From Candidatus Binatia bacterium (lineage in GTDB: Bacteria > Desulfobacterota > Binatia > DP-6), in the NCBI GenBank assembly GCA_041496545.1, contig JBGQET010000008.1, positions 7,543 through 71,542 of the forward strand: a stretch of 64,000 nucleotides of DNA, read 5' to 3'. Under the pieces are notes generated by a model. It was not told the origin of the DNA and made no database searches. It saw only the letters and a list, made by a program, of their open reading frames with translations. The stretch's first letter is position 1. Each line of letters begins with the position of its first letter. This document shows, one piece after another, positions 27,780-46,654 of this stretch. Position numbers and translations under genes: made by a program.

Positions 27780-27830
27780 GGGGGCACGACTATCGCGTGT
27801 GCCCCGGCGCGCGCCAGCGCGCTCAGCGCG

Positions 27831-28349
27831 TCACGGCGCCCCGGGTGGCGGCCCGTGCTCGCCGAGGAGCTGCTCCATCTCGGCGTGCAGCGACTGCATG
27901 CGCTTTCGGATGTCGGCCGCCTTCGTGAGCTGCTCGGGGGTGAGCACGCCGCGGATCTCGAGCGCCACGGCGACCCCCTCCTGCATCAGGTCCTGCCGGA
28001 GCTGGAGGACGCGCTTGGTGGATGGGGCGAGGTCGGCCGCGGCGAGCGGGCCGTTGGCGAGCAGCTTGCCGAGCGTCTCCTCGTTGGCCGTGCGGAGCTG
28101 CCCGGAGAGCTCGTGGAAGCGCTGACGATGCGCCGCCATGATACCCTGCACCTTGGACTGCTGCTCGGCCGACAGGCCGACGCTCCGGATGACGAGCGGC
28201 AGCATGAACATGCCGCCGCCGGGGTCCATCCCCATCTCACCGCCCATCATGCCGCCGCCGCGCATGTGCGGGTGCTCGGCCCGCGCGCCGGCCGCGCAGA
28301 GCGTCAGGGCGAGCGCGCCGGCGACGGGCAGGAACGAACTCGGTCTCAT
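27831..28349 (-). CDS. periplasmic Spy/CpxP/ZraP-like protein with Met/Gly/His-rich N-terminal tract
   Basis: A signal peptide is followed by EHPHMRGGGMMGGEMGMDPGGGMFM. Two LTxxQ-type motifs are present (LSAEQQ, LTPEQL). Confidence 0.7.
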   Translation of the reverse strand: MRPSSFLPVAGALALTLCAAGARAEHPHMRGGGMMGGEMGMDPGGGMFMLPLVIRSVGLSAEQQSKVQGIMAAHRQRFHELSGQLRTANEETLGKLLANGPLAAADLAPSTKRVLQLRQDLMQEGVAVALEIRGVLTPEQLTKAADIRKRMQSLHAEMEQLLGEHGPPPGAP

Positions 28350-29881: not shown

Positions 29882-30019
29882 CCACGCCTCCCCGGGTACT
29901 AGAGTCCCGGGCTTGGCGTCCGGTTGACAGCCCTCCGGGGGCGCACCTGCGGGGTGCGTTTCCCTTGACGCCTCGTCGCGCGCGTGGGCATGGTCCCGCG
30001 CACGCAAGGGGAGGCTCCC

Positions 30020-31228
30020 ATGCGGGTCGGCGCGCATTCCAACCGTCTGGCGATCTTGATTGCGGCGCTCCTCGCCCCGACAGCGGGGACCGCCCACGCC
30101 GCCGGCGACATCAACTCCACCACCGACGTCTCCGCGTACGCCGTGGGGTGCTTCGAAAAGCTCCGCATCAGCGAGGCGACTCTGAAGGCGGCGAACGGTG
30201 ACGCGGCCGACCTCGACTGCAAGCACGCCAGCGCCTTCAAGCTGAAGACGACGTGGACGAAGAATGCCAACGATCCGGCACCCGCGGACTGCGATCCCAC
30301 CTGCGACCTCGACGTGTGGGCGGCGAACAACCCGAACCCGAACACGCCCTGGCCGGGCACGACCGCCACGCCCCGCACCGCCGCCCCACCACTCTGCGAC
30401 TACCCGGCGTGGCTCGAAGCCCGCCTGCTACGGCAACACCTACGTCCGTCGCTTCGACATGAAGAGCACGAGTAAGGAGAACGTCCAGGCCGTCTTCCTC
30501 TGCCGTCACAAGACCGTCTTCGGGGACAACGGCGACACGACCTTCGACGACATCGCGATGATCGTGCACAACAACACGAACGGGGCCACCTGCTGGTTCC
30601 AGGCGCCGCAGGGCGCGGGCGTCAAGATGGACGGACGCCACGTTCCGTATCCGACCAAGGCGGGCTCGACCTGCGTGCAACCGCCGCCGGGCGACGACAA
30701 GTGCTGGGAGAAGGGGACCTGCGCATGCTGGGACACGCCGGCGACGACGGCCGCCCTGGCCTGCATGTCCTGCCACGACAGCGGGCCCTTGCAGTCCAGC
30801 ATCTGGGGGAAGCAGTGGAAGGCCTCCGGCTGGATGCCGTCGGAACAGTTCACGGGCTTCGCTGAGGCGAGCGAGGTGTACGACACGGCGGCCGAGTTCG
30901 ACGTGAGCTACAAGAAGCACGTCCAGGACCTCGTCGACTGCTGCGCCGATCCCACCAAGAGCAAGTGCTATCGTCGGTCCTGCTCGAGGTGAAGGTGTCG
31001 AAGGCCGCGAGCAAGCTCGTGGGCCAGCTCCTCGTCTGCGAGCTGAAGCAGGCCGCCGGGCGCTTCCCGACCACGGACGGCGAGGCCGCGTGCGAGCGGG
31101 TGGCGGTGGACAAGTTCGAGGTGACCCGGACCGACGGCTGCGACGGCTGCACCGACCTCACCGACGTGGAGTCGGCGGAGCTCGTGCTCCTCGACGACGT
31201 GAACTCCTCCGTCTACTGCGCGGAGTGA
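30020..31228 (+). pseudogene. Cys-rich secreted protein with a CxxCH motif, interrupted by two compensating frameshifts
   Basis: AAGGGGAGG lies upstream of the ATG, and the signal peptide is MRVGAHSNRLAILIAALLAPTAGTAHA. Protein-like sequence moves from the frame of 29984 to the frame of 30264 near 30415-30425, then back to the first frame near 30965-30970. CMSCH lies in the middle segment. Confidence 0.55.
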
Positions 31229-31299
31229 CGACGCCCCGCTAGCCTGCGGCCCCGCGCGCTTCGACCCGGGCGCGGAGTGCGCTATACAGCGGGTGAGGT

Positions 31300-34200
31300 A
31301 TGCGGCGAGGGGGTGGGGCGGGCCCGTGGAGCGCCGGCGGACGGGCCCTCGCCGTCGTCCTCCTTGCCGCCGCACCCGCCGTCGCCGCCGCACCCGCCGT
31401 CGCCGCCGAGCCTGCCGGCCCGACGCTCGCCCGCGCGACGCTGCCCGCGCGCGGACGCCAGGAGACCACCCTCGGCGTCACCGCCTTCGGCCGCTACGCG
31501 ATCACGGTGACGAGCCCGCAGGGCACGGCCCTCCAGCTCGTCGACCGCGTCGCGGGCCCGGGCGAGGTGCGCGGCGCCGCCGGCAAGACGGACGGGCGGG
31601 TGGATGCCTTCCTCGAGCAGGGCGAGTACAAGATCGTCACCTGGGCGCACGACAAGGGCTCGGGCGACGCCGCCCTCAAGGTGCGCGCCTTCACCGAGCG
31701 CAGCACGCCCCAGCCGTGGGTGCTGGTCGAGACGAAGCCCGTCGAGACCACGCTCGACGACTTCGAGCAGCGCTCGTGGTGGCTCGACGTCCGCCAGCGC
31801 CGCCAGGTCGTCCTCGAGGCGGTCGGCCGGAACCTCGCCGACCTGCGCTTGTGGACGAACGGGAGCTGGCTGGTCGACGCCGAGCCGACGCGCGAAGTGG
31901 TGACCCCGGTGCCCGGCCGGCCGGTCGCCGTCTGCCGGCTCGTCACCGACCTCGACCCGGGCGTCTACCTGCTGACCGCCTACGGCGGCGCTTCGCAGCC
32001 GCAAGCCGAGGAGAGCGGCGAGCATCCGCTCCACCTCCGCTTCGGCATCCCGTGGCTCGGCGCGGTCGGCCGCCGGCGCTTCGTCACGGGCCCCTTCGGC
32101 GTCGACCGCTGGCGCGTCCCTGGCGACGCGACGTACTTCCGCCTGGAGCTACCCGAAGCGCGCCCCGCCACGCTCCGCGTCGGGATCGACGCGACCAGGC
32201 CGCTCGACGCCGGCGGCTCCGCCGCGACGATCGGCAAGAACGCCCTCGTCCCCGCCGTCGAGCTGACGTTGCCCGCCGGCGCCGACCGATTCGTCAGCAT
32301 CGTCGCGGCGGCGGGACAACCCTACGTCCTCCAGCAGTTCGACCGCGGCAGGTCGTACCCCTGCGGCGGGCAGTACTGGACGCTGCCCCGCACGGGCAAG
32401 TACTGGGTCTCCAGCGTCCACGCCGGCGACCCGAGCGACTCGGTCGACGCGACCGGCGTCCTGACGCGGACGAGGTTCCAACCCCGTCCCGGCGCGCCGC
32501 TCACCGAACCGGCGCTCCGCACCCGCGTGGTCCAGCTCGGGCCCGGGGTGCCGTGGGTCCGCCGCGCCAACCTGCTCGACCCGCTGACCGTCTTCCTGCG
32601 CGTGCGGACGACGGGCAAGTACGTCGTCGCGGCCCGCGGCGTCGAGGCGCGCTTCCGCATCGAGCCGTTCCTCGTCTCCATTCCGTTGCACTACGAGTCG
32701 CCGCCGCTGCGGCCGGCGCCATCCACCTGGGACCTGAACGCGGGCTACTACGTGCTGCGCGCAGAGCCGGTGCAGAAGGGCATCGTCGACCTCGCGCTCC
32801 ACCTCGAGGGCGAGGGGACCGACGACGCGCTCCTCGCCACCCTGCGCGCGGCGGGGGGCGGCACGCCGCTCCAGCCGGTGGCGCAGTTCCAGCGCGTCAA
32901 GGTGGAGCCCGAGACGCTCTACACCTTCTATCTCAACCAGCAGCCGCAGGTGCAGGCGGGACTCGTGCTCCGCGCCCTGCCGCTCGACCTGCGCGAGCCG
33001 CTGCCGGTGACGCAGCGCCCGGGCGAGTCGCTCGCGCTCCGCTTTCGCCAGCGCGAGGAGGGGACGCTCAGCGCGGAATCGGAGGACGGCTCGCAGCTCG
33101 AGGTCGCGGTCGACGGCGGTCCGGCGCAACCGGCGCAGCGGGTCGGGCCCGGCCTCCACCGCCTCCTAGTGCACGCGCCCGCGGACCGCATGGTGAGCTA
33201 CGCGCTCGCGGTCGCGCCCGCCCGCCTCGCGGCCGCGACGCCGCTGCCGCCGCTCCCCGACCCGTCGCGCGCGACGCCGCCCGAGCTGCCGCTGCTGACC
33301 GACAAGAGCCCGCGCTTCTTCGACCTCGTGCGGAACGCCGACACGACCTTCCTGGTGCACGCCGACGCGCCCGCGCTCTACCGGCTCGAGTCGACGGGGT
33401 TGCTCGCCACCGAGGGCCGGCTCCGCACGCGCACCGTCACGGCCTTCGACCGCGCGGCGACGAACGGCGTGGGGCGGAACTTCTTCATCCAGCAGTACCT
33501 GCATGCCGGCGACTACCAGATCACGGTCGCGACCCAGGGCGCGTCGCGCGGCCACCTCGGGCTCACGCTCGCGCGCACCGAGCCGCTCGACGGCGGCGCG
33601 CTCTCCGAGGGTGGGCCGGCGCGCCGCGCGCTCGGCGCGGGCGAGGCGATCGTCTACCGCTTCACGATCCCCGAGGCGGGCGACTACCGCGTGCGGTCGA
33701 TCGGCGCCGGCACGACCTTCCGCGGCCGGCTGGAGGACGCCGGCGGCTGGCCGATCGAGAAGCCGAACGTGCCCGCCGACCTCACCCGGCGCTTCGCGCC
33801 GGGGACGTACCGGCTCGTCTCGCTCCCAGAGCCGGTGGCCACCCGCCGCGTGACGCTCTTCGAGCGCGTGCGCCCGCCGCTCGCCTTCGAGGGCCACGGC
33901 CCGCACGCGCTGCCGCTCGCGGTCGCGGTGTCGCACGTGTGGACGGAGCCGGCGGCGGGCGAAGCGCGCGTCCCCGACGGCTGGCTCTTCGCGCTCCCGG
34001 CGCCCGCCGCAGTGCGCGTCGACCTGGGCGGCGAGATGCAGGGCACGGTGCTCCGGCTCGACGGCGACGGCGCGCCGGCGGCGGCGGCGACGGTGCCGCC
34101 GAGCCGCGGGTGGAGCGGGAAGCTCGACGCCGGCCGCTACCGCCTGGACGCGGTGAGCGCGCGTCCGAACAACCGCGCGCCGTACCAGGTCGCGGTGTGG

Positions 34201-36582
34201 CCCGAGGAGCTGGTGGCGGGGCTGGATCGCGAGCTGAGCGCGCCGGTGAGCATTCCCGTCTCCGTCGGCCGCGAAGGCCTGGTCGCGCTCAGCTCCTTCG
34301 GCGCGGCGGACGTTCGCGCGCGGCTCTACGACGCCGAGGAACGTCTGGTGGCGGCGAACGACGACGGCGCCGACGACTGGAACTTCCAGCTCCAGACGCG
34401 GCTCCGGCCCGGCGTGTACCGGCTCCACGTGGACCCGGTCGGCGCGGAGTCGGCGACGACCGTCGTCTCGATGCGCGCCCCGGAGGAGTCCGCACGCCCC
34501 GCGCTCCAGCTCCCGGTGCAGCAGGACGTCGCGCTCGCCGACACCGTGCAGCTCTTCCCGCTCGAGCCCGCGGCCGGCGCCGAGCTGCTGGTGGTGTCGG
34601 CGGCGGCGCCGGAGAGCGTCGGCGCCGCGCTCGAGAGCGCGGGCGCCGACGGCGAGTTCCGCACCGTCGGCTCGGCCGTCGGACGCGTCGCGCGGCTCGC
34701 CGTGCCGCTCGGCGCCGGGGCGCGCTACCGCCTGCGTCTGTGGTCCGTCGACGGCCGCGACACCAAGTTGAAGCTCGCCGCCGCCGCCGTCACGCCGCCG
34801 CGCGCGACGGAGCGCCAGCTCGCGGACGGGCTCGCGCTCACCCCGGTCGCCAAGCTCGTGCCGCCGGCGGGCGTGGCCGCGGTGCAGCTCGATCGTCCCG
34901 GCGTCTTCCGTCTGGAAGCCGGCGGCGTGCGCGCGTCAGCGACGCCCGGGGTGGTGTGCGCGGAGCCGTCGGGGGGCGTGGTCGCGGCCGGCGGCACGGT
35001 CCTCTGGCTGGTCGGCGACCTCGCCAAGGCGGCGGCCGCGCGACGGGTGGCGGCGGCGCGCGTGCTGCTCGCCGGTGACGGCGCGACCCGCGTGCAGCTC
35101 CCGGTGGACGCCGAGCGGCCGGCGGTCTGCGACCTCGCGAAGCCTGCCGGCGGCCCGCTCCTCGCGCTCGCGACCTCGCTCGGCGAGCAGCCGTCGCTCA
35201 GCGTGATCGAGCGCGCGGAGGCGGGCGCGCCGCGGCCGGCGGTCGCCGGCATGGCGGTCGGTACGCGCGCGGCGGCGGCGGTGGCGCTCGGGGCGAAGGA
35301 GCCGGCGGTCGCGGTGTGGGCGACGCCCGAGCCCGGGCGGCGCGCGCAGGTGACGCTCGAGCAGTGGAGCTTCCCGCCGCCGCCGCCGGCGCCGGCGCCC
35401 GCCGCGGCGTGGGACGACGCGCTCGCCGGCACGCTGGCGCGCGCCTTCGACCTGCCCGCGGGGCCGAAGCGCGTCCGGCTCGCGCTCGAGGGACGGACGG
35501 TCGCCGCGCTCGCCGAGGGCGAGCGCGTGACGAGCGTCCACTGGAACGGCGACGAGCCGTTCGAGGAGACGCTGGAGACGACCGCCACGCGCCTCGTCAT
35601 CCTGCACGCCCGCGCCGCCGAGGACCGCGTCCACGTCGAGTGGCTGCCGCTCGGCGCGAAGGACGCAGCGCCGCCGCTCGCGCCGGGCGCGCCGTGGGAG
35701 CGTGCCGAGCTGCGCGCCGGCACGACGCGCCTCGCCGTCGCGCCGGGGCAGGGCGCGCCGGGGCGGCCGTGGGCGCTCCACGTCCGCGGCCCCGGCACGG
35801 CGCCGGTGCTGCTGCGCGCCGACGGCGGCGTCGCCCGCGGTCGCGACCTGCCGCTCCCCGACTCGGGCGGCGTGCTGCTCGTCGGACACGCCCCCGGGCT
35901 CGTCCTCGCCTGGGTCGACCGCCCCGGCGAGGAAGCGGGCGACGTGTGGGGTCGCATGACGCTCCCGGCGGAGACCGCCGTCGCGCCGCCCGCGGTCGTG
36001 CCGCTCGGCGGCGCGGTGCAGGTGCTCGGCGTGAAGCCCGCGGTGCCGGTCATGCTCCACTTCCGCACCGCGACGCCGGTGGTCACCTGGCTCCGCCGCG
36101 GCGGGGGCGCGCCGGAGGTGGACGTGCACCCGGCCGGCGCGGTGCTCGACGCGTACCTCGGCGCGGAGCCCGCGCGGCTCGGGCTGCGCGCCGTCGGCGG
36201 CGGCGCGCTCTGGGGGACGGCCGAGGTCACCGTCTCGCCCGTGACGCCGATCGGCGAGGGCCTGGGGCCCGAGCGCTTGCTGCCGGCCGGTACGACCGCG
36301 CTCTTCTCGTTCACCGTGCCGCACGACGGGCCGATCGGGGTCGGCGTGCGCGCCACGCCGGACGTGGTCGAGCTTGCGCTGCTCGACGAGCACGGCATGC
36401 GGCTCGGCGCCGGCGTGGTGCAGATGCGCGAGGTGAAAGCCGGCGTCTACCTGCTCGCGCTGCGCGTCCCGCCCGAGGCGGGACCGGTGACCGCGCGGCC
36501 GGCGCTGGCGGGTGTCCAGCTCCCGAGCACCGGGCCGCCGGAGGACGTGGTGCGCCAGTACATGACCGGGGCGGCTCCGTGA
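31300..36582 (+). CDS. 1760-aa secreted repeat protein (PPC/pre-peptidase-C-terminal-like beta-sandwich modules)
   Basis: GGGTGAGG lies upstream of the ATG and a signal peptide is present. G-x-Y-x-hydrophobic strand motifs recur (GEYKIVTW, GVYLLTAY, GDYQITVA, GDYRVRSI, GTYRLVSL, GRYRLDAV, GVYRLHVD, GVYLLALR). One clear module reads LYDAEERLVAANDDGADDWNFQLQTRLRPGVYRLHVDP. Confidence 0.8.
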   Translation: MRRGGGAGPWSAGGRALAVVLLAAAPAVAAAPAVAAEPAGPTLARATLPARGRQETTLGVTAFGRYAITVTSPQGTALQLVDRVAGPGEVRGAAGKTDGRVDAFLEQGEYKIVTWAHDKGSGDAALKVRAFTERSTPQPWVLVETKPVETTLDDFEQRSWWLDVRQRRQVVLEAVGRNLADLRLWTNGSWLVDAEPTREVVTPVPGRPVAVCRLVTDLDPGVYLLTAYGGASQPQAEESGEHPLHLRFGIPWLGAVGRRRFVTGPFGVDRWRVPGDATYFRLELPEARPATLRVGIDATRPLDAGGSAATIGKNALVPAVELTLPAGADRFVSIVAAAGQPYVLQQFDRGRSYPCGGQYWTLPRTGKYWVSSVHAGDPSDSVDATGVLTRTRFQPRPGAPLTEPALRTRVVQLGPGVPWVRRANLLDPLTVFLRVRTTGKYVVAARGVEARFRIEPFLVSIPLHYESPPLRPAPSTWDLNAGYYVLRAEPVQKGIVDLALHLEGEGTDDALLATLRAAGGGTPLQPVAQFQRVKVEPETLYTFYLNQQPQVQAGLVLRALPLDLREPLPVTQRPGESLALRFRQREEGTLSAESEDGSQLEVAVDGGPAQPAQRVGPGLHRLLVHAPADRMVSYALAVAPARLAAATPLPPLPDPSRATPPELPLLTDKSPRFFDLVRNADTTFLVHADAPALYRLESTGLLATEGRLRTRTVTAFDRAATNGVGRNFFIQQYLHAGDYQITVATQGASRGHLGLTLARTEPLDGGALSEGGPARRALGAGEAIVYRFTIPEAGDYRVRSIGAGTTFRGRLEDAGGWPIEKPNVPADLTRRFAPGTYRLVSLPEPVATRRVTLFERVRPPLAFEGHGPHALPLAVAVSHVWTEPAAGEARVPDGWLFALPAPAAVRVDLGGEMQGTVLRLDGDGAPAAAATVPPSRGWSGKLDAGRYRLDAVSARPNNRAPYQVAVWPEELVAGLDRELSAPVSIPVSVGREGLVALSSFGAADVRARLYDAEERLVAANDDGADDWNFQLQTRLRPGVYRLHVDPVGAESATTVVSMRAPEESARPALQLPVQQDVALADTVQLFPLEPAAGAELLVVSAAAPESVGAALESAGADGEFRTVGSAVGRVARLAVPLGAGARYRLRLWSVDGRDTKLKLAAAAVTPPRATERQLADGLALTPVAKLVPPAGVAAVQLDRPGVFRLEAGGVRASATPGVVCAEPSGGVVAAGGTVLWLVGDLAKAAAARRVAAARVLLAGDGATRVQLPVDAERPAVCDLAKPAGGPLLALATSLGEQPSLSVIERAEAGAPRPAVAGMAVGTRAAAAVALGAKEPAVAVWATPEPGRRAQVTLEQWSFPPPPPAPAPAAAWDDALAGTLARAFDLPAGPKRVRLALEGRTVAALAEGERVTSVHWNGDEPFEETLETTATRLVILHARAAEDRVHVEWLPLGAKDAAPPLAPGAPWERAELRAGTTRLAVAPGQGAPGRPWALHVRGPGTAPVLLRADGGVARGRDLPLPDSGGVLLVGHAPGLVLAWVDRPGEEAGDVWGRMTLPAETAVAPPAVVPLGGAVQVLGVKPAVPVMLHFRTATPVVTWLRRGGGAPEVDVHPAGAVLDAYLGAEPARLGLRAVGGGALWGTAEVTVSPVTPIGEGLGPERLLPAGTTALFSFTVPHDGPIGVGVRATPDVVELALLDEHGMRLGAGVVQMREVKAGVYLLALRVPPEAGPVTARPALAGVQLPSTGPPEDVVRQYMTGAAP
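31366..31409 (+). repeat. 18-bp tandem duplication (2.4 copies) inside the signal-peptide coding region
   Basis: GCCGCCGCACCCGCCGTC occurs at 31366-83 and 31384-401, with a partial third copy at 31402-09. It encodes [15 protein letters not shown]. Confidence 0.85.
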
Positions 36583-39500
36583 GGCGCCGGGCGCTTCTCA
36601 TCGCCGCGCTCACAGCCGCGCTCGCAGAGCGAGCGGCGGCGGCGCCGCCCGTCCGGCCGGCGGAAGCGAAGGGCACCGTCGTCGTCCCCGATCGGTTCCT
36701 CCGGCGCTGGGATCCGGTGACGGTCTTCTTCGAGCGCGACGCCGGGCCCGCGAAGGGCGGCCCGGAGGACCACCCCGAGCGGCTGGTGAAGGTGACGCCG
36801 GCGCACCCCGGTGCGTTCACCTGGCTCGACGCGCGCACGCTCCAGTTTCGCCCGGCGGAGCCCTGGCCGCCGCTCGCGCGCTTCACGTGGGTCGCGCGCG
36901 ACACGACGGCGCGCCTCACCACGCTCATGGCGGCGCCGCGGACGGCGCTCCCGGCCGACGCCGCCGTCGGCCTCGACCCGGTCGAGACCGTGTCCCTCAC
37001 CTTCGCCGAGCCGCTCGACCCGCAGGCCCTCGCGCGCATGGTCACCATCGAGCTCCGACCCCTGCCCGGAATCGGCGGCGAGCGGGCGCGCTGGATGACG
37101 TGGAACGACTTCCAGGTGAAGGAGATGGAGCGCCACGCGCGCGCCGACCCCGCGACCTACGTCCTCGAGCTCGCCTCGCCGGTCCCGCTCGGCACGCGCG
37201 CCATCGTCCACCTGCGCCTCTCGCTCGACGACGACGCGAGGGAGTCGTTCGCCGAGATCGCGTTCTCCACCGCCGAGCCCTTCCGCGTCGTCGAGGTCGG
37301 GTGTCGCGGCGACGAGGAGGGCGCGTGGGGGACGCCGCGCGGCCCGCGGCGGACGTATCCGGTGACGCCGGAGGGCACGCGCTACACGCCGGAGCAGCCG
37401 CTGCGCTGCCGCGAGAACGACCGCACGATCGCGATCGAGTTCTCCGCCCCGCCGCGCGACGTCGACCCCGTCGAGGGGCGGAATCTCGTGCGGCTCACGC
37501 CGTCCGTCGAGCACCTGGACTTCGCGGTCGAGGGGAAGACGCTCACCGTCTCGGGCGACTTCGACGCCGAGCGGCTCTACCGCGTGACGCTCGCCCCGAC
37601 GCCGCTCAAGGACCGGCAGGGCCGCGCGCTCGAGATGCGCGCGGAGAGCGAGCTGTCGGTCTACTTCCCCGGCCTGCCGCGCCGCCTCGCGTGGGTCTCC
37701 GGCGACGGCGTGGTGGAGCGTCTCGGCCCGCAGACGGTCCCGCTCACGGGCCGCGGCACGGAGCGGCTCGACCTCCGCATCCACCGCGTCGAGCCGCTCG
37801 ACCGCGCCTTCTGGCCCTTCCCGCGCCAGTCGCTCTCGCTCGACGAAGCGGGCCGGCCGCCCGGCCCGGGCGAGGAGCCCGACCCGCACACCGACCTCCA
37901 GCCCGCGTCCGTCTTCGAGCTGCAGCGACAGATCGGCGCGCTCGGCTCGCCGCTCGTCTCGACGCTGGTCACGCTGCCGTTCAAGCGCGACGGCAAGGGC
38001 GCGACCTTCGGCCTCGACCTCGGCGCCCACCTTGCGCGCATCGCGGGGGTGGAGCGGCCGGGGACGTACCTGGTCGGGCTCCGTCGCCTCGACGGCTCGA
38101 GCGAGCGCTCGTGGATGCGCGTGCAGGCGACCGACCTCGCCCTCACCGCGGCCGAGGAGCCCGACGCCGTGCACTTCGTCGTCACCTCGCTGGCGAACGG
38201 CCGTCCCGTCCCCAAGGCGACGGTGCGGCTGGAGGGCATCCTCGACCAGCCCTCCGACTCGACGAAGCGCGCCTGGACCACGCTCGCGGAGGGGAAGACG
38301 AACGACGACGGCGGTTTCCGCTGGCCGGCGCCGGGCTGGCGCTCGGGCGACCCGTACCGCGAGATCCAGCGCATCGTCGTCAGCGCCGGCGACGACCTGC
38401 TCGTCCTCGACCCGGGGCGCGCACCCGACGCCTACGCCGACAACCACTGGAACGCGACCCACGAGCGCTGGCTCGCGTGGGCCTTCCAGCCGCTCGACGC
38501 CCGCCTCGCCGGACCCGAGAAGCTCTGCCACATCTTCACCGAGCGGCCCGTGTACCGCCCGGAGGAGACGGTCCACATCAAGGGCTACCTCCGCCAGCGC
38601 GCGCAGGGCCACTTGACGCCCCTCCAGTACTCCGGCGCGGTGGTGGTGGAGGGACCGGGCGACCAGCGCTGGCGCCGCCCCGTGACGGCGACGCCCGCGG
38701 GCAGCTTCTACGTCGCGTTCAGCGAGACCAACCTGCCGACCGGCGACTACACGGCGCACTTCGAGGACGCAGACGCCAACGCGTACGGCGAGGTCGCCTT
38801 CCGGGTCGACGCCTACCGCATCCCGACCTTCGAGGTGGACCTGCACGCGCCCGACAAGGTGCCGCTCGACCACGAGTTCGGGGTGGCGCTCACCTCCACC
38901 TACTACGCCGGCGGCAAGGTCGCGGGCCGTCCGGTGGAGTGGCGCGTCACGCAGTTCCCCTACACGTGGACGCCGAAGCGACGCGAGGGCTTCCAGTACT
39001 CCTCGGACGGTCGCTTCTCGGGCAACGCCAGGTTCGAGTCGTCGCCCAGGCTCGAGAAGGAGGACACCACCGACGAGAACGGCGCCGCCTCGCTGACCCT
39101 GAACCCCGCGCTCGAGCCGACGGCGCAGCCGCGCACCTACGTCGTCGAGGCGACCGTCACGGGGCCCGACGACCAGACCGTCACCAACACCCGGCGCGTG
39201 ATCGCGCTGCCGCCGTTCGTGCTCGGCTTGAAGGTCCCGCGCTACCTCGAGCACGCCAAGGAGGTCGCGCCCGAGCTGGTGGTCGTCGGCCCCGACGGCG
39301 AGCCGCTCGCCGGCACCGAGGTGAAGGTCCGGCTGCTCAACCGCCAGTGGCACTCGCACCTCCGCGCCAGCGACTTCTCCGACGGCGTGGCCCGCTACGT
39401 GACCGACGTGGTCGACGAGAAGGTCTCCGAGACGACGGTCACGAGCGGTGCTGCGCCGGCGACGGTGCGCTTGCCGATCGACCACGCCGGTGTCTACGTC

Positions 39501-42416
39501 GTCGAGCTGGAGGCGCACGACCGGCTCGGGCGCGCGCAGGTGGTCGCCGTCGACCTCTACGCCGGCGGCGCCGAGCCCGTCACCTGGGCGAAGCCGGTGA
39601 CGCGCGTCTTCGAGGTGGCGAGCGACAAGGACGCGTACGACCCCGGCGAGACCGCGAACCTGGTGCTGAAGAGCCCCTTCCAGGAGGGCCGCGCGCTGGT
39701 CGTGACCGAGGCCCCGGAGGGCAACGACTACCGCTGGCTCGAGGTGAAGGGCGGCACGGCGACGTTCAAGGTCCCCATCCGCGGCGCCTACGTGCCGCAG
39801 CTTCCCGTCCACTTCGTCCTGATGCGCGGCCGGGTGGCGAGCGCGCCCGCGGCGGCGACCGACCGCACCGACCTCACCAAGCCCTCCACCGTCGCCGCCA
39901 CGGCGTGGGTGAAGGTGAACCCGGTCGACAACCGCGTCGAGGTGACGCTCGAGAACCCGGCGCGCGCACGGCCGGGCGAGACCGTGCCGGTGACCGTCCG
40001 CTTGAAGGACCCGCACGGCAAGCCGCTCCCGGGCGAGGTGACGCTCTGGCTCGTCGACCAGGCCGTGCTCGCGCTCGGCAAGGAGCAGCGCCTCGACCCG
40101 CTGCCGGACTTCATCACGCTCGTCGTCTCGCGCCTCGCGGTGCGCGACACGCGGAACCTGCCCTTCGGGCGGCTGCCGTTCGTCGAGAGCCCGGGGGGCG
40201 CGGGCGGCGAAGGGGAGGGCGGCGGGATCTTCGACAAGGTGACCGTGCGGCGGAGCTTCAAGCCGGTGCCGTACTTCAACCCGGCGATCGAGGTGGGGCC
40301 CGACGGCTGGACGACGGTGCAGGTGGCGCTGCCCGACAACCTCACCAACTTCAAGCTGCGCGCCAAGGCGGCGAGCGGACCCGAGCGCTTCGGCTGGGCG
40401 GTGGGCGACCTCGCCGTGCGCTTGCCGGTCATCGTGCAGCCGGCGCTGCCGCGCTTCGTGCGTCCGGGCGACAGCTTCACCGCCGCCGGCATCGGCCGCG
40501 TCGTCGAGGGCGAGGGGGGGCCGGGGAAGGCGCAGGTCCGGGTCGACGGCGGCGTGGTCGCCGCGCCCGCGACGCGCGAGCTGGCGTGGGTGGCGGAGCG
40601 TCCGGAGCGGATCGAGTTCCCGGTCGAGGTGGTGACCCCGGCGTACACCCCGGAGGGCGCGCTCGCGCGCACGGAGATCACGATCGGCGTCGCCGTGACG
40701 CGCGCCTCGGACGGCGCCGGCGACGCCTTCGAGGTGAAGCTGCCGATCCGCGACGACCGCCGCCGCGTGACGGCGCGGCAGCTCGACGAGGTCGTGGCGG
40801 GGAAGCCGCTCGCGATTCCCGCCCTGCCCGAGCCGGCGCGTCCGGGGACGGTGCGGCGCGCGCTCGTCGTCTCGGACCAGCCGGCGCTGCTCAAAATGGC
40901 GGCCGGCCTCGACGTCCTCCTCGCCTACCCGTACGGCTGCACCGAGCAGCGGCTGTCGCGCGCCGAGGCCGTGCTCGCGCTCCGCAAGCTGCGCGGGCTC
41001 CTCGGCGAGACGGGCGGCGAGGAGGAGAGCGCGCGGCCGGTGCGCGAGGTGCTCGAGTGGCTGCCCGGCGTCGTCGACCCGCACGGGCTCGCCGCCTTCT
41101 GGCCGGGTTCGCGCGGCTACGTCTCGCTCACGGCGTGGGTCGTGCGCTTCCTGGTCGAAGCGCGGGCGGGCGGCTTCCCGGTGGACGCGAAGCTGTTCGA
41201 CGGCTTCACGGGCGCCCTCGAGCAAGCGCTCCGCTCCGACTACAGCCAGTTCATCGACGGCGAGTCGTTCAACGAGCGCGCCTGGGCGCTCGCCGCGCTC
41301 GCGTCCGCGGGCAAGTTCAACCCCGGCTACGCCGCCGAGCTGGCGCGCCGCGCGCAGTACCTCGACCTCGAGGGTGTGTCCGAGGTGACGCTCGCGCTGG
41401 CGCGGCAGGGCGACACCGCGTCGTCCACTGTCGAAGCGCTGGTGCAGCGGCTCTGGGACGGCCTCGTCGTCCGTCTCTACCAGGGCCACGAGCAGTACGG
41501 CGGGCTCCAGAAGCGGGCGGATCGGAACGGCCTCATCCTGCCCAGCGAGACGCGCACGATCGCGGAGGTCACCCGGGCCGTCGCGCACGTGAAGCCCGAG
41601 GAGCCGCGGCTCGCGGTCCTGGTCGCGGCGCTGGTCACGCTCGGCCGCGGCGACGGCTGGGGCTCGACGAACGCCGACGCGGCGGCGCTCGGCGCGCTCG
41701 CCGAGCGGCTCACGCCGCCGCTCGCGGGGAGCGCGCCGCGCACGCTGCGCGTGCGCTTCGGCGCGGACACGCGGACGGTCGCGCTCGGACCCGAGACGCC
41801 GCTCGTGCGGCTGGTCGCCACCGACGCCGCGGCGGGCGAGGTCGCGCTCGACGCGGGCGGCGCGCCGGGGACGGTCGCGGTGCGCGCCGAGACGTCGTGG
41901 ATCCCCGAGGCCGACGGCAGCCGCGTCGCCGCCGACGCCCACGGCTTCGTGGTGTCGCGCGAGTGGCTCCGCGTCCGCCGCAAGACCGACGCGCCGCCGG
42001 AGCGCGTACCGCTGGCGGCGCCTGGTACGACGCTCACCCTCGCCGTCGGCGATGTCGTCGAGGAGCACGTGCAGGTCGTGAACCCCGAGGACCGCCACTA
42101 CGTCGCCGTGGTGATGCCGCTCGCGGCGGGCCTCGAGCCGCTCAACCCGAAGCTCGCGACGGCGTCGGCCGACGCCATCCCGGCCGGCACGCTCACCCTC
42201 GAGCCGACCTACGCCACCTACCTCGACGACCGCGTCGCCTTCTACTACGACACGCTCGCCAAGGGCACGTACGACTTCTTCGTGCGCACGCGGGCCAGCA
42301 CGCCGGGCAAGTTCATCCAGCCCGCCGCGCAGGCGGAGACGATGTACGACGCGGGTGTCCGCGGGGGCTCCGCCGGCGCGCGCGTCGAGGTGGCGCCCGC
42401 CGCCGAGCGGCGATGA
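36579..42416 (+). CDS. yfhM: bacterial alpha-2-macroglobulin with thioester (YfhM/ECAM class)
   Basis: The GTG start overlaps the upstream stop as GTGA. About 1945 aa with a signal peptide and no lipobox Cys. The thioester motif YPYGCTEQ has CTEQ at 40938-40949. A pbpC gene lies immediately downstream. Confidence 0.92.
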   Translation: MRRRALLIAALTAALAERAAAAPPVRPAEAKGTVVVPDRFLRRWDPVTVFFERDAGPAKGGPEDHPERLVKVTPAHPGAFTWLDARTLQFRPAEPWPPLARFTWVARDTTARLTTLMAAPRTALPADAAVGLDPVETVSLTFAEPLDPQALARMVTIELRPLPGIGGERARWMTWNDFQVKEMERHARADPATYVLELASPVPLGTRAIVHLRLSLDDDARESFAEIAFSTAEPFRVVEVGCRGDEEGAWGTPRGPRRTYPVTPEGTRYTPEQPLRCRENDRTIAIEFSAPPRDVDPVEGRNLVRLTPSVEHLDFAVEGKTLTVSGDFDAERLYRVTLAPTPLKDRQGRALEMRAESELSVYFPGLPRRLAWVSGDGVVERLGPQTVPLTGRGTERLDLRIHRVEPLDRAFWPFPRQSLSLDEAGRPPGPGEEPDPHTDLQPASVFELQRQIGALGSPLVSTLVTLPFKRDGKGATFGLDLGAHLARIAGVERPGTYLVGLRRLDGSSERSWMRVQATDLALTAAEEPDAVHFVVTSLANGRPVPKATVRLEGILDQPSDSTKRAWTTLAEGKTNDDGGFRWPAPGWRSGDPYREIQRIVVSAGDDLLVLDPGRAPDAYADNHWNATHERWLAWAFQPLDARLAGPEKLCHIFTERPVYRPEETVHIKGYLRQRAQGHLTPLQYSGAVVVEGPGDQRWRRPVTATPAGSFYVAFSETNLPTGDYTAHFEDADANAYGEVAFRVDAYRIPTFEVDLHAPDKVPLDHEFGVALTSTYYAGGKVAGRPVEWRVTQFPYTWTPKRREGFQYSSDGRFSGNARFESSPRLEKEDTTDENGAASLTLNPALEPTAQPRTYVVEATVTGPDDQTVTNTRRVIALPPFVLGLKVPRYLEHAKEVAPELVVVGPDGEPLAGTEVKVRLLNRQWHSHLRASDFSDGVARYVTDVVDEKVSETTVTSGAAPATVRLPIDHAGVYVVELEAHDRLGRAQVVAVDLYAGGAEPVTWAKPVTRVFEVASDKDAYDPGETANLVLKSPFQEGRALVVTEAPEGNDYRWLEVKGGTATFKVPIRGAYVPQLPVHFVLMRGRVASAPAAATDRTDLTKPSTVAATAWVKVNPVDNRVEVTLENPARARPGETVPVTVRLKDPHGKPLPGEVTLWLVDQAVLALGKEQRLDPLPDFITLVVSRLAVRDTRNLPFGRLPFVESPGGAGGEGEGGGIFDKVTVRRSFKPVPYFNPAIEVGPDGWTTVQVALPDNLTNFKLRAKAASGPERFGWAVGDLAVRLPVIVQPALPRFVRPGDSFTAAGIGRVVEGEGGPGKAQVRVDGGVVAAPATRELAWVAERPERIEFPVEVVTPAYTPEGALARTEITIGVAVTRASDGAGDAFEVKLPIRDDRRRVTARQLDEVVAGKPLAIPALPEPARPGTVRRALVVSDQPALLKMAAGLDVLLAYPYGCTEQRLSRAEAVLALRKLRGLLGETGGEEESARPVREVLEWLPGVVDPHGLAAFWPGSRGYVSLTAWVVRFLVEARAGGFPVDAKLFDGFTGALEQALRSDYSQFIDGESFNERAWALAALASAGKFNPGYAAELARRAQYLDLEGVSEVTLALARQGDTASSTVEALVQRLWDGLVVRLYQGHEQYGGLQKRADRNGLILPSETRTIAEVTRAVAHVKPEEPRLAVLVAALVTLGRGDGWGSTNADAAALGALAERLTPPLAGSAPRTLRVRFGADTRTVALGPETPLVRLVATDAAAGEVALDAGGAPGTVAVRAETSWIPEADGSRVAADAHGFVVSREWLRVRRKTDAPPERVPLAAPGTTLTLAVGDVVEEHVQVVNPEDRHYVAVVMPLAAGLEPLNPKLATASADAIPAGTLTLEPTYATYLDDRVAFYYDTLAKGTYDFFVRTRASTPGKFIQPAAQAETMYDAGVRGGSAGARVEVAPAAERR

Positions 42417-44791
42417 GCCGCGGGCGCGTCGCGGCGGTTCTGGTCGCGCTCGTGCTGGGGGCGGTGGTCGCGACGCGCGCCCGGCTGGTGGCGCCGTCGC
42501 CGACGCTGCTCGCGCGCGACGCGCGCGGGCGCTTCCTCGCCGAGATCGACGACGGGAGCGGCGCCGAGGCCGGCTACTGGCCGCTGGCGGCGCTGCCGGC
42601 GCGCGTCGTGGCGGCCACGCTCGCGGTCGAGGACCGCCGCTTCTGGCGCCATCCCGGCGTCGACCCGCTCGCCGTGGCGCGGAGCCTGCGGGCGAACTGG
42701 CGTGCCGGGCGGCGCACCTCGGGCGCGTCCACGCTGGCGATGCAGGTCGCGCGCATCCAGGCCCCGGGCCCGCGCACGTACCTCCGCAAGGCCGTGGAAG
42801 CGCTCACCGCGTGCCTGCTCACCGCGCGCTACGGGCGCGAAGCCGTGCTCGCGCACTACCTCCGCATCGCGCCCTACGCGAACCGCATCCGCGGCATCGG
42901 CTTCGCGGCGCGGCGCTACTTCGACAAGCCGGTCGACGACCTGAGCTGGGCCGAGACGGCCTTCCTGACGGCGATCCCGCAGGCGCCGGCGCTGATGAAC
43001 CCCTACCGCCCGCGCGGGCGCGCGCGCGCCGCGGAGCGCGGGCGGCGCATTCTCGACGCGCTCCTCGCCCGCGGCGCGTTCGGCGCCGGGGAGCACGCCG
43101 CCGCCGCGCGCGAGATCGCGGCGCTCGCCGTGCCGCCGCTCGCGCACCGGCCGCCCGAAGCGCTGCACGCCGTGCTGCGCCTCACGCGGCTCGTCCGCGA
43201 CCCGGCGACGCGCCCGCCGTTCCCGCCCCGCGGCATCCTCGAGACGACGCTCGACCTCGACGTCCAGGCGGCGGTCGCGGCGCGCGTCGCCGGCGCCGTG
43301 CGCGCGCTCGCCTCGCGCGGCGCGGGCAACGCCGCCGCGATCGTCGTCGAGCGCGGCACCAACCGCGTGCTCGCCTGGGTGGGCTCGGCGGGCTACTCCG
43401 ACGCGCGTCACGCGGGCGCGTACGACTACGCGCGGGTGCCGCGCTCGCCCGGCAGCACGCTCAAGCCGTTTCTCTACGCGCTGGCGCTCGAGCGTGGCGT
43501 GATCACGCCGGCCACCGTGCTGGACGACATCCTGCGCGCGCCCGGCGACATCGTGAACGCGGACGAAGCGTTCCTCGGTCCCCTGCTGCCGCGCGTCGCG
43601 CTGGCCAACTCGCGCAACGTCCCCGCCGCCAACCTCCTCGATCGCCTCGGGCTCGCGGAAGGCTACGCGTTCCTCCGCGACCTCGGCCTCCACGACGGCG
43701 CGGTCGCCGCCGAGCACTGGGGGCTCGGGCTCGCGATCGGCGCGCTGCCGACGACGCTCGAGCGCTTGGTGCGCGCGTACACGGTGCTCGCGGGCGACGG
43801 CCGCGCGTCCGACCTGGTGTGGTACACGGGCGAACCGCTCGCGCCGCCGCGCCGCTTGCTCGCCGAGGACACGGCGCGGCAGGTGACCCTCTTCCTCGCC
43901 GACCCGATGGCGCGCCTGCCGACCTTCCCGCGCATGGGCGCCAGCGAGTACCCCTTCCCGGTCGCCGTCAAGACCGGGACCTCGTCCCGCTACCGCGACG
44001 CGCTCACGGTGGCGTACACGACGCGCTACGCGGTCGGCGTCTGGCTCGGCGACCCCGACTACCGGCCGATGAGCCGCTTGACGGCTTTCGCCTCCGCCGC
44101 CGGGCTGGCGCAGGAGATCGTCGCCTGGCTGCACCGCGACCAGAGCGGCGGGCTCGACGACCTCCAGTTCCCGCCGCCGCGCGGCTTCCGCCCCGTGCGC
44201 GTCTGCGGCGTGACCGGCAAGCGTGCGACGCATGCCTGCGGACAGGTCTACGTCGAGTGGTTCCGCCCCGGCGTGGAGCCGGCGGAGGAATGCGACGCGC
44301 ACGTCGAGCTCGCCGTCGACAAGCGCGACGGCCTCCTCGCCTCGACGTACACGCCTCCCGGCGCCGTCGAGGTGCGGACCTTCACGACGCTGCCCGCGCG
44401 CTACGCCGCGTGGGCGGCGGCGGCCGGGCTCCGGCGTCCGCCGGCGGCGGTGAGCCCGCTCGGCGCGCCGCCGGGCGCGCGCGCCGCCCGCGGGCCGCCG
44501 GCCCCGCTCGCGCGCGGCGGCGCGCCGCGGCTCCGCATCCTCGCGCCGCGCGGCGGGACGCGGCTCGTGCGCGACCCGGAGAGCCCACCCGCGCTCGGCA
44601 CGCTCGCGCTCCGCGTCCTCGTCGATCCGCCGGCGGCACAGGTCGTGTGGTACGTCGACGACGCGCCCTTCGAGGTCGTCGACTACCCGTACACCACCCG
44701 CTGGGCACTCCGGCCGGGCGACCATACGTTCCAGGCGCGGCTGCCGTGGACCAACGTCGCGTCGACCGCGGTGCGCGTGCGCGTGCAGTGA
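42413..44791 (+). CDS. pbpC: penicillin-binding protein 1C (bifunctional glycosyltransferase/transpeptidase)
   Basis: The ATG overlaps the A2M stop as ATGA. The GT51 motif is EDRRFWRHPGVD. Transpeptidase motifs are STLK, SRN and KTG. A C-terminal PBP1C-type domain is present. Confidence 0.92.
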   Translation: MSRGRVAAVLVALVLGAVVATRARLVAPSPTLLARDARGRFLAEIDDGSGAEAGYWPLAALPARVVAATLAVEDRRFWRHPGVDPLAVARSLRANWRAGRRTSGASTLAMQVARIQAPGPRTYLRKAVEALTACLLTARYGREAVLAHYLRIAPYANRIRGIGFAARRYFDKPVDDLSWAETAFLTAIPQAPALMNPYRPRGRARAAERGRRILDALLARGAFGAGEHAAAAREIAALAVPPLAHRPPEALHAVLRLTRLVRDPATRPPFPPRGILETTLDLDVQAAVAARVAGAVRALASRGAGNAAAIVVERGTNRVLAWVGSAGYSDARHAGAYDYARVPRSPGSTLKPFLYALALERGVITPATVLDDILRAPGDIVNADEAFLGPLLPRVALANSRNVPAANLLDRLGLAEGYAFLRDLGLHDGAVAAEHWGLGLAIGALPTTLERLVRAYTVLAGDGRASDLVWYTGEPLAPPRRLLAEDTARQVTLFLADPMARLPTFPRMGASEYPFPVAVKTGTSSRYRDALTVAYTTRYAVGVWLGDPDYRPMSRLTAFASAAGLAQEIVAWLHRDQSGGLDDLQFPPPRGFRPVRVCGVTGKRATHACGQVYVEWFRPGVEPAEECDAHVELAVDKRDGLLASTYTPPGAVEVRTFTTLPARYAAWAAAAGLRRPPAAVSPLGAPPGARAARGPPAPLARGGAPRLRILAPRGGTRLVRDPESPPALGTLALRVLVDPPAAQVVWYVDDAPFEVVDYPYTTRWALRPGDHTFQARLPWTNVASTAVRVRVQ

Positions 44792-44865
44792 GGCACAGGA
44801 CACGTCGCCGCTTGGCGCGACAGGCCTCGACTGCGCGAGGGCGTCCGTGCGTTGACATAGCGTCG

Positions 44866-44938
44866 TCACCCGGGGTCCTCCTGCTGGGGGAAATTCGTAA
44901 GGGGGACGAATGTTCTTGCCCCAAGGGACCCCGGGTGA
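44866..44938. other. nested stem-loop element in a lower-GC intergenic patch
   Basis: CACCCGGGGTCC (44867-78) pairs perfectly with GGACCCCGGGTG (44926-37), and T44866 pairs with A44938. The stem encloses an inner hairpin ATTCGT/ACGAAT (44893-98 / 44906-11). There is no flanking T-tract. Confidence 0.35.
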
Positions 44939-45394
44939 ACGAACGTGGTTCACACCTAGGCGACGGTGAAGTGATAGCCGATGTTGCCCGAGTAGCCGAC
45001 CGCATGCTCAACGATGACCTGCAGCAGATGATTCAACCCCAGAGGAAAGTCGACTTCCGCGTGAACCGTACCAGAGAACCAGTCGTTCAGAATGTCTACG
45101 CGGTTCGCGTCAGGGCAGGCGCCACAGGTGTCCACGACGACCGTGCAGCTTCACCTTCGACGCCGACAGCCCGTCGTCGATCCGATCCTGCATCTACGCC
45201 GCGCGGCCGCCACTGGGGGGACCATCCGGGCGCGGCGCGAGGTGCCGGCACGAGCGGCAGCGACGTGCCTGCCTACTAGGCAGCGAATTCCCCATCGGGC
45301 CGCGTCCCGCGGCACGCCCGACCCCGCCTCGTGCGGTGCGGCCGCGGCCTTTTCGCCGGGGGCGTGGCACCCGGGTTGCTGATGAGGGGCGGAG

Positions 45395-46654
45395 ATGCTC
45401 GGACTCGTCCTCACCGCCGGCGGTGCGCGGGGCGCCTACCAAGCGGGCGTTCTCAAGCGGATCGGCGAGCTGGCCCTGCTGCGCGACGCGCCGCTCCCGT
45501 TCCAGGTCGTGACCGGCGCGTCGGCCGGGGCGATCAACGGGGCGCTCGTCGCCTCGCGGAGCGCGAGCTTCCGTGAGGCGACGCGGTCCGCCGCCCAGCT
45601 GTGGTCGGGCGTCAGGATGGAGCAGGTGTTCCGCACCGACGCGTGGTCGCTCGGGATGGGCGCCCTCGGCATGGTGCGGGACATGACGCTCGCCGGGTTC
45701 CTCGGGCACACGGTGACCCAGTCGCTCTTCGACGCCTCGCCGCTCTACGAGCTCGTGAGCCGTCACTTCGACGCGGGTGGGATCGCCGAGGCGATCGAGC
45801 GCGGGCACCTCTACGCGCTCGCGATCACGGCGACGAGCTACCACTCCGGGCGTTCGTATACCTTCGTGCAGGGACGTCCGGGGCACCCGGTGTGGACGAA
45901 GAGCCGCCGCGTGGTCCTGCCGGTGGAGCTCGGGCCCGACCACGTGTGTGCGTCGGCGGCGATTCCGATCGTGTTCCCGCCGGTCCGGGTGGCCTCGATC
46001 GCGGGCGACCTCTACTTCGGCGACGGCGGGCTGCGCCAGGTGACGCCCTTCAGCCCCGCGATCCGCCTGGGTGCGAGCCGCGTGCTCGCGGTCGGCATCC
46101 GCTCCCAGCGGGCCTCCGACGCCCTCTCACGGGAGGAGCTCGGCACTGCGGAGGAGGCAGGTCTCCAGGGCCCGAGCATCGTGCGTCCGCCGCTCGCGCA
46201 GATCTGCGGCGTGTTCCTGAACGCCATCTTCCTCGACCACCTGGACAGCGACCTCGATCACCTCCGGCGCATGAACGAGCTGATCCGCTCGTACGGGACT
46301 GCGGTCGGGGACGGCGACCCGCGGTCGCCGGCCGTGAGCGAGCCGATGCGCCTCGTCACCCCGCTCGTCATCACGCCGTCGGAAGACCTGGCGCTCGTGG
46401 CGCAACGCTTCGCGCATCGGATGCCGCGCCTCGTCCGCTACCTGATGGACGGCCTCGGCACGCCCGACGCGCAGAGCGCGGACCTGATGAGCTACCTGCT
46501 CTTCGACGGCACGTACACGCGAGCGCTCGTCGACATCGGCTACCGCGATGCCGACGAGCGGGCGGAGGAGATCGAGGCTTTCCTGGCAGCGGCGGCGGCC
46601 GAAGGCGCGACCTCGCGGAGCACGCGCTGGGTGAAGGCGAGCCGCCCGCCGTAG
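45395..46654 (+). CDS. patatin-like phospholipase
   Basis: GGARGAY (oxyanion Gly-rich motif), GASAG (GxSxG), and FGDGGL (the catalytic Asp motif). Confidence 0.88.
   Translation: MLGLVLTAGGARGAYQAGVLKRIGELALLRDAPLPFQVVTGASAGAINGALVASRSASFREATRSAAQLWSGVRMEQVFRTDAWSLGMGALGMVRDMTLAGFLGHTVTQSLFDASPLYELVSRHFDAGGIAEAIERGHLYALAITATSYHSGRSYTFVQGRPGHPVWTKSRRVVLPVELGPDHVCASAAIPIVFPPVRVASIAGDLYFGDGGLRQVTPFSPAIRLGASRVLAVGIRSQRASDALSREELGTAEEAGLQGPSIVRPPLAQICGVFLNAIFLDHLDSDLDHLRRMNELIRSYGTAVGDGDPRSPAVSEPMRLVTPLVITPSEDLALVAQRFAHRMPRLVRYLMDGLGTPDAQSADLMSYLLFDGTYTRALVDIGYRDADERAEEIEAFLAAAAAEGATSRSTRWVKASRPP

Follow-up and report, generated by a model that had tools for sequence, protein, structure and literature searches.

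The gene neighbourhoods of bacterial alpha-2-macroglobulins (A2Ms) are said to have been first surveyed by Budd et al. in 2004. Two types of bacterial A2M have been described, namely a lipoprotein form that carries a thioester and is encoded together with pbpC, and a thioester-less form whose gene belongs to a six-gene mag operon (PMC5764988, PMC3735191). Combining an A2M with the peptidoglycan synthase PBP1C has been proposed to protect from proteases and lysozyme once the outer membrane has been breached, and in the mag system the lipobox-less MagD binds its operon partners 1:1, MagB above all being needed for stability and membrane localisation (PMC5764988). Here, we describe a 64,000-nucleotide (nt) stretch of DNA from Candidatus Binatia bacterium (GCA_041496545.1, contig JBGQET010000008.1, positions 7,543-71,542, forward; 'the window' below refers to the whole of this stretch), which holds a putative three-gene envelope-defence operon of a different make-up, encoding in turn a very large protein that we call the giant, an A2M and a PBP1C-type synthase. 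The giant belongs to a family that is the obligate genomic partner of one clade of long-form thioester A2Ms, and our favoured reading, to which we assign a probability of roughly 0.55, is that it would join the A2M, as an accessory subunit, in a periplasmic complex that defends against hydrolases. No description of the giant/A2M/pbpC trio was found in the literature searched, Budd et al. 2004 having been outside that search.

With the first of the described types, represented by the yfhM (ECAM)-pbpC pair of E. coli and by Sa-A2M of Salmonella, the window shares a thioester of the form CxEQ and the MG, bait-region, A2M and bMG10 domains, and, as in E. coli yfhM-pbpC, its pbpC lies immediately downstream with overlapping or near-overlapping codons. 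Unlike YfhM, however, the window A2M is ~290 residues longer and has no lipobox, and where ECAM has its anchor domains bMG1 and bMG2 there is a different, conserved arm of ~490 residues. The second type, magABCDEF of P. aeruginosa and the yfaS-type operon of E. coli, resembles the window in combining an A2M without a lipid anchor with operon-encoded accessory proteins, and by analogy may be taken as the closest precedent for the function of the giant-A2M pair. Here too there are differences: MagD has no thioester whereas the window A2M keeps its CTEQ, and the Mag A2M is accompanied by five small proteins, of which one contains a transmembrane helix, in an operon without pbpC, whereas the window A2M has a single, soluble giant partner in a trio that includes pbpC. 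None of the five small Mag/Yfa partner genes stands beside the window A2M, where only the giant and pbpC are conserved; as the giant has no Pfam match, it matches none of Pfam's families, which are expected to include the domains of the Mag/Yfa partners. The coordinates and sequence statements of a preliminary description of this locus all proved correct when open reading frames (ORFs), overlaps and motifs were rechecked, among them the GTGA coupling of giant to A2M and the ATGA coupling of A2M to pbpC (Table 1).

The evidence that carries the pairing comes from gene order in other genomes. A scan with one genome per species returned 218 loci with a relative of the giant, and 80 of these were fetched for their neighbourhoods. 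An A2M gene follows the giant on the same strand in every one of the 65 fetched loci whose sequence continues for at least 1.5 kb past the giant stop codon, and pbpC follows the A2M in 43 of the 50 loci over which it was counted, with one further locus having pbpC directly upstream of the giant; the preliminary description had made its proposal depend on such synteny, which these counts bear out. At least 13 other lineages have a gap of -4 nt between giant and A2M, and most gaps are shorter than 180 nt. With the long-form A2M as the starting point, all three relatives on large contigs have an upstream ORF of 2,032-2,278 residues without Pfam domains, which overlaps the A2M gene by 4 nt, and have PBP1C downstream. 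As a negative control, metagenomes were scanned starting from E. coli YfhM, which gave 80 ECAM-type loci with 29-100% identity to YfhM, and a giant homolog was found in none of the 80 (in 59 of which the upstream sequence measures at least 5.5 kb), whereas the giant gene always lies upstream of the long-form A2M. Nearly all ECAM-type loci have pbpC, 50 of the 80 have a lipobox by a crude pattern search, and E. coli yfhM itself has the divergent gene sseA upstream; the contrast with the ECAM-type arrangement that had been drawn beforehand thus stands. With complete synteny and an empty control, giant and A2M thus form a closer pair than A2M and pbpC do in the classical arrangement, and a pair that is confined to a single A2M clade.

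The giant diverges in step with the A2M, more closely than their common relation to PBP1C would account for. Over 41 operons, pairwise distances of the giant (G) and the A2M (A) are correlated at r(G,A) = 0.95, and with PBP1C (P) controlled the partial r(G,A|P) is 0.73, the partial r(G,P|A) is 0.02 and the A2M-PBP1C partial correlation is 0.62, which fits, as soft evidence, an arrangement in which the A2M is the hub.

The giants are a new protein family that no curated model covers. The window giant has no family match in Pfam, NCBIfam or PADLOC, longer variants of 2,070-2,278 residues have none in Pfam, and a profile of 20 giants retrieved nothing from the PDB sequences at E <= 1. We found 602 homologs, all annotated as hypothetical; among the 120 of these matches that were listed, nearly all have 97-99% query coverage, lengths of 1,740-1,850 residues and 43-65% identity, and an exhaustive search with giant residues 36-1100 as the query gave 1,227 clusters at the 50% identity level, 672 of them at E <= 1e-30, with uniform lengths. 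The fetched loci come from Binatia, which are closest (59%), from Thermoanaerobaculia and other Acidobacteriota, from Nitrospirota, Elusimicrobiota and Myxococcota, and from alpha-, beta- and gamma-proteobacteria; one cultured organism with a family member is Paramagnetospirillum magnetotacticum MS-1 (gene CCC_01498). The trio was also seen on contigs binned as Candidatus Paceibacteria (L058, JBLHLW010000043.1) and Enterobacteriaceae (L065, CAYWGD010000117.1); because the other hosts of the system differ, these two taxon labels look like binning or labelling errors.

A repetitive beta-sandwich architecture of the kind predicted for the giant is common in adhesins, and the giant contains no catalytic or known functional domain, features that would suit an adhesin or surface protein with no relation to A2M and pbpC other than a common transcript. 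We consider this extremely doubtful, given the adjacency of giant and A2M in 65 of 65 loci from eight or more phyla, the repeated occurrence of 4-nt overlaps, the absence of the giant from all 80 ECAM-type loci, the uniform length of the family, the high pTM of the models described below and the lack of any adhesin, S-layer or secretion-sorting domain. The preliminary description had named an adhesin or S-layer identity as a point that would speak against it, and the giant matches no such family, nor any other curated one.

Table 1. Coordinates, in window numbering, of the three genes of the operon and of features within them
Feature	Position	Strand	Remarks
Giant protein gene	31300..36582	+	1,760 residues; ORF and translation, third-position G+C (GC3) 0.96; predicted all-beta, ~16 beta-sandwich modules
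Sec signal peptide of the giant, predicted	31300..31407	+	~residues 1-36, cleavage site approximate; read from the sequence by eye
Run of mutually related PPC-like beta-sandwich modules	32455..34464	+	~residues 386-1055; hhalign
GHGPH motif	33892..33906	+	In a long loop; G865, H866, G867 and P868 invariant
NDDGADDW loop of the best-preserved PPC-like module	34357..34380	+	Residues 1020-1027
C-terminal PPC-like module and conserved helix GPPEDVVRQYM	36220..36564	+	Module = residues 1641-1740
GTGA overlap	36579..36582	+	GTG start of the A2M shares nucleotides with the TGA stop of the giant
Long-form thioester A2M gene	36579..42416	+	1,945 residues; Pfam domains, profile match to YfhM/Sa-A2M structures
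N-terminal arm of the A2M	36651..38126	+	Residues 25-516; begins with invariant VVPDxFLRRWDPVT
Thioester motif CTEQ	40938..40949	+	Within YPYGCTEQ
ATGA overlap	42413..42416	+	pbpC start shares nucleotides with the A2M stop
PBP1C-type bifunctional peptidoglycan synthase gene (pbpC)	42413..44791	+	792 residues; Pfam, TIGR02073, catalytic motifs

Spurious ORFs are abundant in the window because of its G+C content of 72%, and the ORF list combined with GC3 singles out three successive genes on the + strand; for the giant, a GC3 as high as that in Table 1 within a window of this composition means that the ORF is coding. Its N-terminus reads MRR, followed by the hydrophobic stretch ALAVVLLAAAPAVAAAPAVAA and then EPAG, and its homologs have typical, clearer Sec signal peptides, with a lipobox-like Cys in few of them. 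Of the earlier proposal that the giant is secreted, what is seen is the Sec-type signal peptide; the final location is inferred.

Modelled with AlphaFold2 as two segments, each with 61-sequence alignments, the giant is predicted to be all-beta throughout (residues 36-1100, pLDDT 90.6 and pTM 0.77; residues 1050-1760, pLDDT 91.1 and pTM 0.84). Judged from the high pTM, the domains seem to be packed in fixed positions, which would favour a compact body over a flexible string of beads. Foldseek comparison of both models with the PDB returned CUB domains of neuropilin, cubilin, PCPE-1, C1r/C1s and enteropeptidase, the collagen-binding domains of ColG, botulinum HA70 and HA3, and the extracellular domains of SIDT1, the carbohydrate-binding-type matches being HA70/HA3, the b1/b2 discoidin domains of neuropilin, BcsB and a PNGase. 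As the query-normalised TM-score is at most 0.17 for all of these matches, which hold at the level of single domains only, no solved structure has the overall architecture of the giant. Like PPC, collagen-binding and CUB modules, several modules of the giant have a G-x-Y-x-L-x-V strand and an acidic NDDxxDDW loop, but in known proteins an enzyme or receptor carries just one or a few such modules as appendages, whereas here ~16 modules make up the whole protein, packed compactly in the model and with no catalytic domain attached. An origin of the giant as a paralogue of the A2M was considered and rejected: hhalign of the 16 modules against the A2M and PBP1C alignments stays below 13% throughout and the Foldseek TM-scores to ECAM and C5 are at most 0.09, so the giant is not a recognisable A2M paralogue.

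The carbohydrate-binding beta-sandwiches among the Foldseek domain matches raise the possibility of a glycan- or peptidoglycan-binding scaffold, whose CBM-like modules would hold the soluble A2M, and perhaps also the activity of PBP1C, at the sacculus, and whose main ligand would not be the A2M. The neighbouring gene is indeed for a peptidoglycan synthase, and one member of the family (P0458; L086 10001-16039) has, besides an N-terminal LprI domain, an OmpA-like peptidoglycan-binding domain inserted at residues 1163-1238. This insertion is a single case, scoring 28.1 bits against a cut-off of 27.2, and Pfam models for CBM, LysM, SPOR and OmpA domains match neither the window giant nor the 20 homologs that were scanned. 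Moreover, the correlation between giant and PBP1C vanishes once the A2M is controlled for, and pbpC is missing from 7 of 50 loci in which the A2M is never missing, so that a scaffold of this kind seems to us unlikely.

At the level of sequence, the giant contains 16 copies of the pattern G-x-[YFH]-x-[LVIF]-x-[LVIATS], compared with 1.2 +/- 1.0 copies (at most 5) in 500 shuffles, and the G-x-Y-x-L-x-V strands of the main module run lie at residues 439, 482, 618, 737, 794, 835, 945 and 1038; the recurrent GxYxLxV strand noticed in the preliminary description is thus far more frequent than in shuffled sequences. Profile-profile comparison of 16 approximate modules relates the module at residues 963-1055, which holds NDDGADDW, to ~386-962 and to 1641-1740 with probabilities of 51-94%; against this module, hhalign gives modules D4-D8 probabilities of 54, 14, 90, 94 and 69%, and it links D16 to D7 at 85% and to D9 at 51%. 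No relation to other modules is detectable by the same method for residues ~1056-1640, and the earlier picture of many degenerate PPC-like modules accordingly holds for part of the protein, namely ~386-1055 and 1641-1740. The Pfam PPC model (PF04151) matches 5 of 20 homologs, at best with 2.5e-7 and in the NDDxxDDW module, and has no match in the window giant at E <= 0.01. The NDDGADDW loop, found in one module as had been reported, is the most conserved motif of the family, with D1021, D1022, D1026, W1027, N1028 and F1029 invariant. Next to the GHGPH motif, H869, H879, W881 and E883 are conserved; the resulting cluster GHGPH-(9)-H-x-W-x-E (33892-33948, giant residues 865-883) is invariant across the family and might be a metal or interaction site. 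GHGPH is kept in lineages whose A2M is thioester-less.

The giant ends in a helix (residues 1748-1757 in the AlphaFold2 model; TGPPxDVVRxYL at 36532-36579) that is conserved across the family. In most giants it is followed by an acidic, E/D/G/P-rich tail of 30-70 residues (homologs P0003-P0120), whereas the window giant and its nearest relatives end directly after the helix. A variable, disordered tail of this kind, in a protein co-produced with a protease trap, could be expected of a bait, decoy or sensor whose cleavage by invading proteases triggers or recruits the A2M. We regard this as very improbable, because identities of 43-65% over 1,750 residues across phyla and a confident fold throughout are unlike a sacrificial substrate, the tail is absent from the window giant and its nearest relatives, and A2Ms have a bait region of their own (Pfam A2M_BRD).

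By their sequences, the partner A2Ms appear as a distinct long form of ~1,930 residues, predicted to lack a lipid anchor and to have a conserved N-terminal arm of their own. The window A2M matches the Pfam models bMG10 (4.5e-28), A2M_BRD (6.5e-20), MG2 (4.7e-15), A2M (2.2e-11) and bMG6 (1.1e-6), and among the 120 relatives listed lengths run from 1,762 to 2,146 residues, nearly all of them 1,888-2,146, at 57-72% identity. Its N-terminus, VRRRALLIAALTAALAERAAAAPP, has no Cys in the first 45 residues, as had been claimed in contrast with ECAM, ECAM-type A2Ms being mostly lipobox-bearing; among the 56 full-length partner A2Ms listed from other genomes, a single one has a lipobox-like motif. The bMG3 domain begins at residue 517, compared with 289 in ECAM, where bMG1 spans 59-163 and bMG2 169-287, and the models for these two domains (PF17970 and PF21142) have no match in the window A2M, whereas they match YfhM at 3e-48 and 2.5e-51, respectively. 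The first 100 residues of the mature A2M are dense with invariant positions, the stretch VVPDxFLRRWDPVTxFF being among the most conserved of the protein. With E. coli YfhM the window A2M shares 23% identity over 949 residues (BLASTP 4e-18), and a profile of 15 long-form A2Ms retrieves YfhM from the PDB at 6.6e-26 and also Sa-A2M, which are the sole PDB relatives by sequence; phmmer with the single window sequence finds nothing in the PDB even at E = 10, probably an effect of composition or of bias filtering in an A2M gene of 76% G+C.

The thioester motif is intact in the window, as previously noted, and is kept in 51 of the 56 partner A2Ms listed, the other five having TTEA or NAEA. These thioester-less A2Ms (L040, L047, L055, L065 and L073) read YPYGTTEA or YPHGNAEA in place of YPYGCTEQ, their loci keep an intact giant gene with all the invariant motifs, and they may be an offshoot that arose independently of the MagD type.

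In one sub-branch of the family the giant carries an N-terminal LprI/DUF1311 domain, which scores 25.7-39.4 bits against a gathering score of 22 and, where present, accounts for ~100 of 1,850 residues. It occurs in 34 of the 120 matches listed for a Magnetospirillum-type giant and in 4 of the 80 genome loci, and both loci examined for LprI-bearing giants (n = 2) still have the giant/A2M/pbpC trio. The conserved cysteines of the domain fit an extracytoplasmic location. Other proteins with this domain, such as M. tuberculosis LprI, Salmonella ScwA and orphan immunity proteins of type VI secretion systems (T6SS), act in the biology of peptidoglycan hydrolases in the cell envelope; the sub-branch shares the domain with them above the Pfam threshold. 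ScwA controls the levels of MltD and conferred no lysozyme resistance, and the MliC domain of M. tuberculosis LprI suffices for resistance (PMC7933661). Proteins with an LprI domain have been predicted to give immunity to lysozyme-like T6SS effectors (PMC9796082). The fusions fit the theme of protease and lysozyme protection.

The same fusions invite an explanation in which the giant itself inhibits or traps invaders other than proteases, such as lysozymes or the peptidoglycan-hydrolase effectors of T6SS, in parallel with the A2M and not as its subunit. The predicted immunity function of LprI proteins (PMC9796082) agrees with this, as does the model of A2M and PBP1C as protection against proteases and lysozyme (PMC5764988). 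The domain is, however, lacking in the window giant and in most of its family, and its inhibitor activity is putative; an independent trap would also leave unexplained the strict adjacency to one A2M clade and the residual correlation that is specific to the A2M, and we judge it distinctly improbable.

The third gene of the operon encodes a protein with Transgly (3e-43), Transpeptidase and BiPBP_C domains in Pfam, a hydrophobic N-terminal membrane anchor and all of the motifs EDRRF, STLK, SRN and KTGT; its TIGR02073 score of 439 bits is below the cut-off of 494, which makes it a diverged member of the PBP1C group. Beyond the trio, the flanking genes of the window encode a MacB-type permease, an LTXXQ protein, a patatin-like phospholipase and an enoyl-CoA hydratase, and are housekeeping genes unrelated to it. 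The first two lie ~3 kb upstream on the - strand (25218-28349) as a MacB/FtsX-type ABC permease of 853 residues and an LTXXQ (Spy/CpxP-like) periplasmic protein; a MacB-type gene is also found ~9 kb from the trio in L083, and its presence near both trios is probably a coincidence. A scan for promoters and terminators and an Rfam search of 30000-45500 detected no element. A fourth conserved gene was sought among the fetched loci and rejected, the best other cluster being present in 12 of 80 loci and the clusters being of generic families; those that recur in the flanks are sigma-54 activators, ABC ATPases, Ser/Thr kinases and GGDEF-EAL proteins.

The rare larger gaps within the trio hold selfish elements, among them a toxin-antitoxin pair and a REP-type transposase. 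Judged by eye from the translations, the giant/A2M junction holds an RHH antitoxin and a MazF/PemK-like toxin in one locus (L007 15211-15806) and a REP-associated Y1 transposase-like ORF in another (L022 11102-11650). Between A2M and pbpC, again by eye, we observed an ORF for a four-helix bundle (L013 21424-22083) and an AAA/ABC-type ATPase (L018 20956-22350).

How, then, might an accessory subunit work? The start-stop overlaps suggest that the giant is made together with the A2M, which it would bind in the periplasm, stabilising or positioning a protease trap that, unlike ECAM, is unable to anchor itself by a lipid, in the way that operon-encoded partners stabilise and localise the lipobox-less MagD. 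The giant may in addition be a platform for further modules against invading wall-degrading enzymes, as in the LprI sub-branch and the one OmpA-like member, and PBP1C, anchored in the inner membrane, would then repair the wall. A bolder and rather unlikely extension would have the giant and the long-form A2M form a heteromeric periplasmic cage of ~400 kDa, a counterpart of the multi-subunit thioester-protein complexes of animals, in which the giant extends the trap beyond proteases to the peptidoglycan hydrolases that competitors or hosts deliver, with PBP1C recruited for local repair of the wall.

Several points weigh against the giant as an accessory subunit of the A2M. Their periplasmic association is one that we infer from genomic pairing, and no giant-A2M fusion of the Rosetta-stone kind was present among the best 150 of the 1,227 cluster representatives. 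Having no membrane anchor of its own, the giant cannot alone replace the lipid anchor. The distance correlations are weak evidence, the three genes being co-inherited as one operon and the coefficients carrying no significance test. A search of the five thioester-less lineages for a giant motif that changes with the loss of the thioester found none, and since the association persists without the thioester, the role of the giant is not tied to thioester chemistry. Finally, the LprI domain (PF07007) that would link the giant to wall-degrading enzymes is absent from the window giant and most of the family, and is no more than a putative lysozyme inhibitor.

The locus represents a third arrangement of the bacterial A2M system, widespread in environmental diderm bacteria, which combines a thioester A2M that has no lipid anchor with an obligate partner of ~1,750 residues. 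What is new is this partner, which has neither a curated family nor a solved relative, and which offers a concrete candidate for how a soluble bacterial A2M may be positioned or regulated. It also stands for a large new protein family that is confidently modelled, one in which the LprI fusions link a protease trap with defence against wall-degrading enzymes, and of which CCC_01498 in P. magnetotacticum MS-1 gives the field a member in a named, cultured organism.

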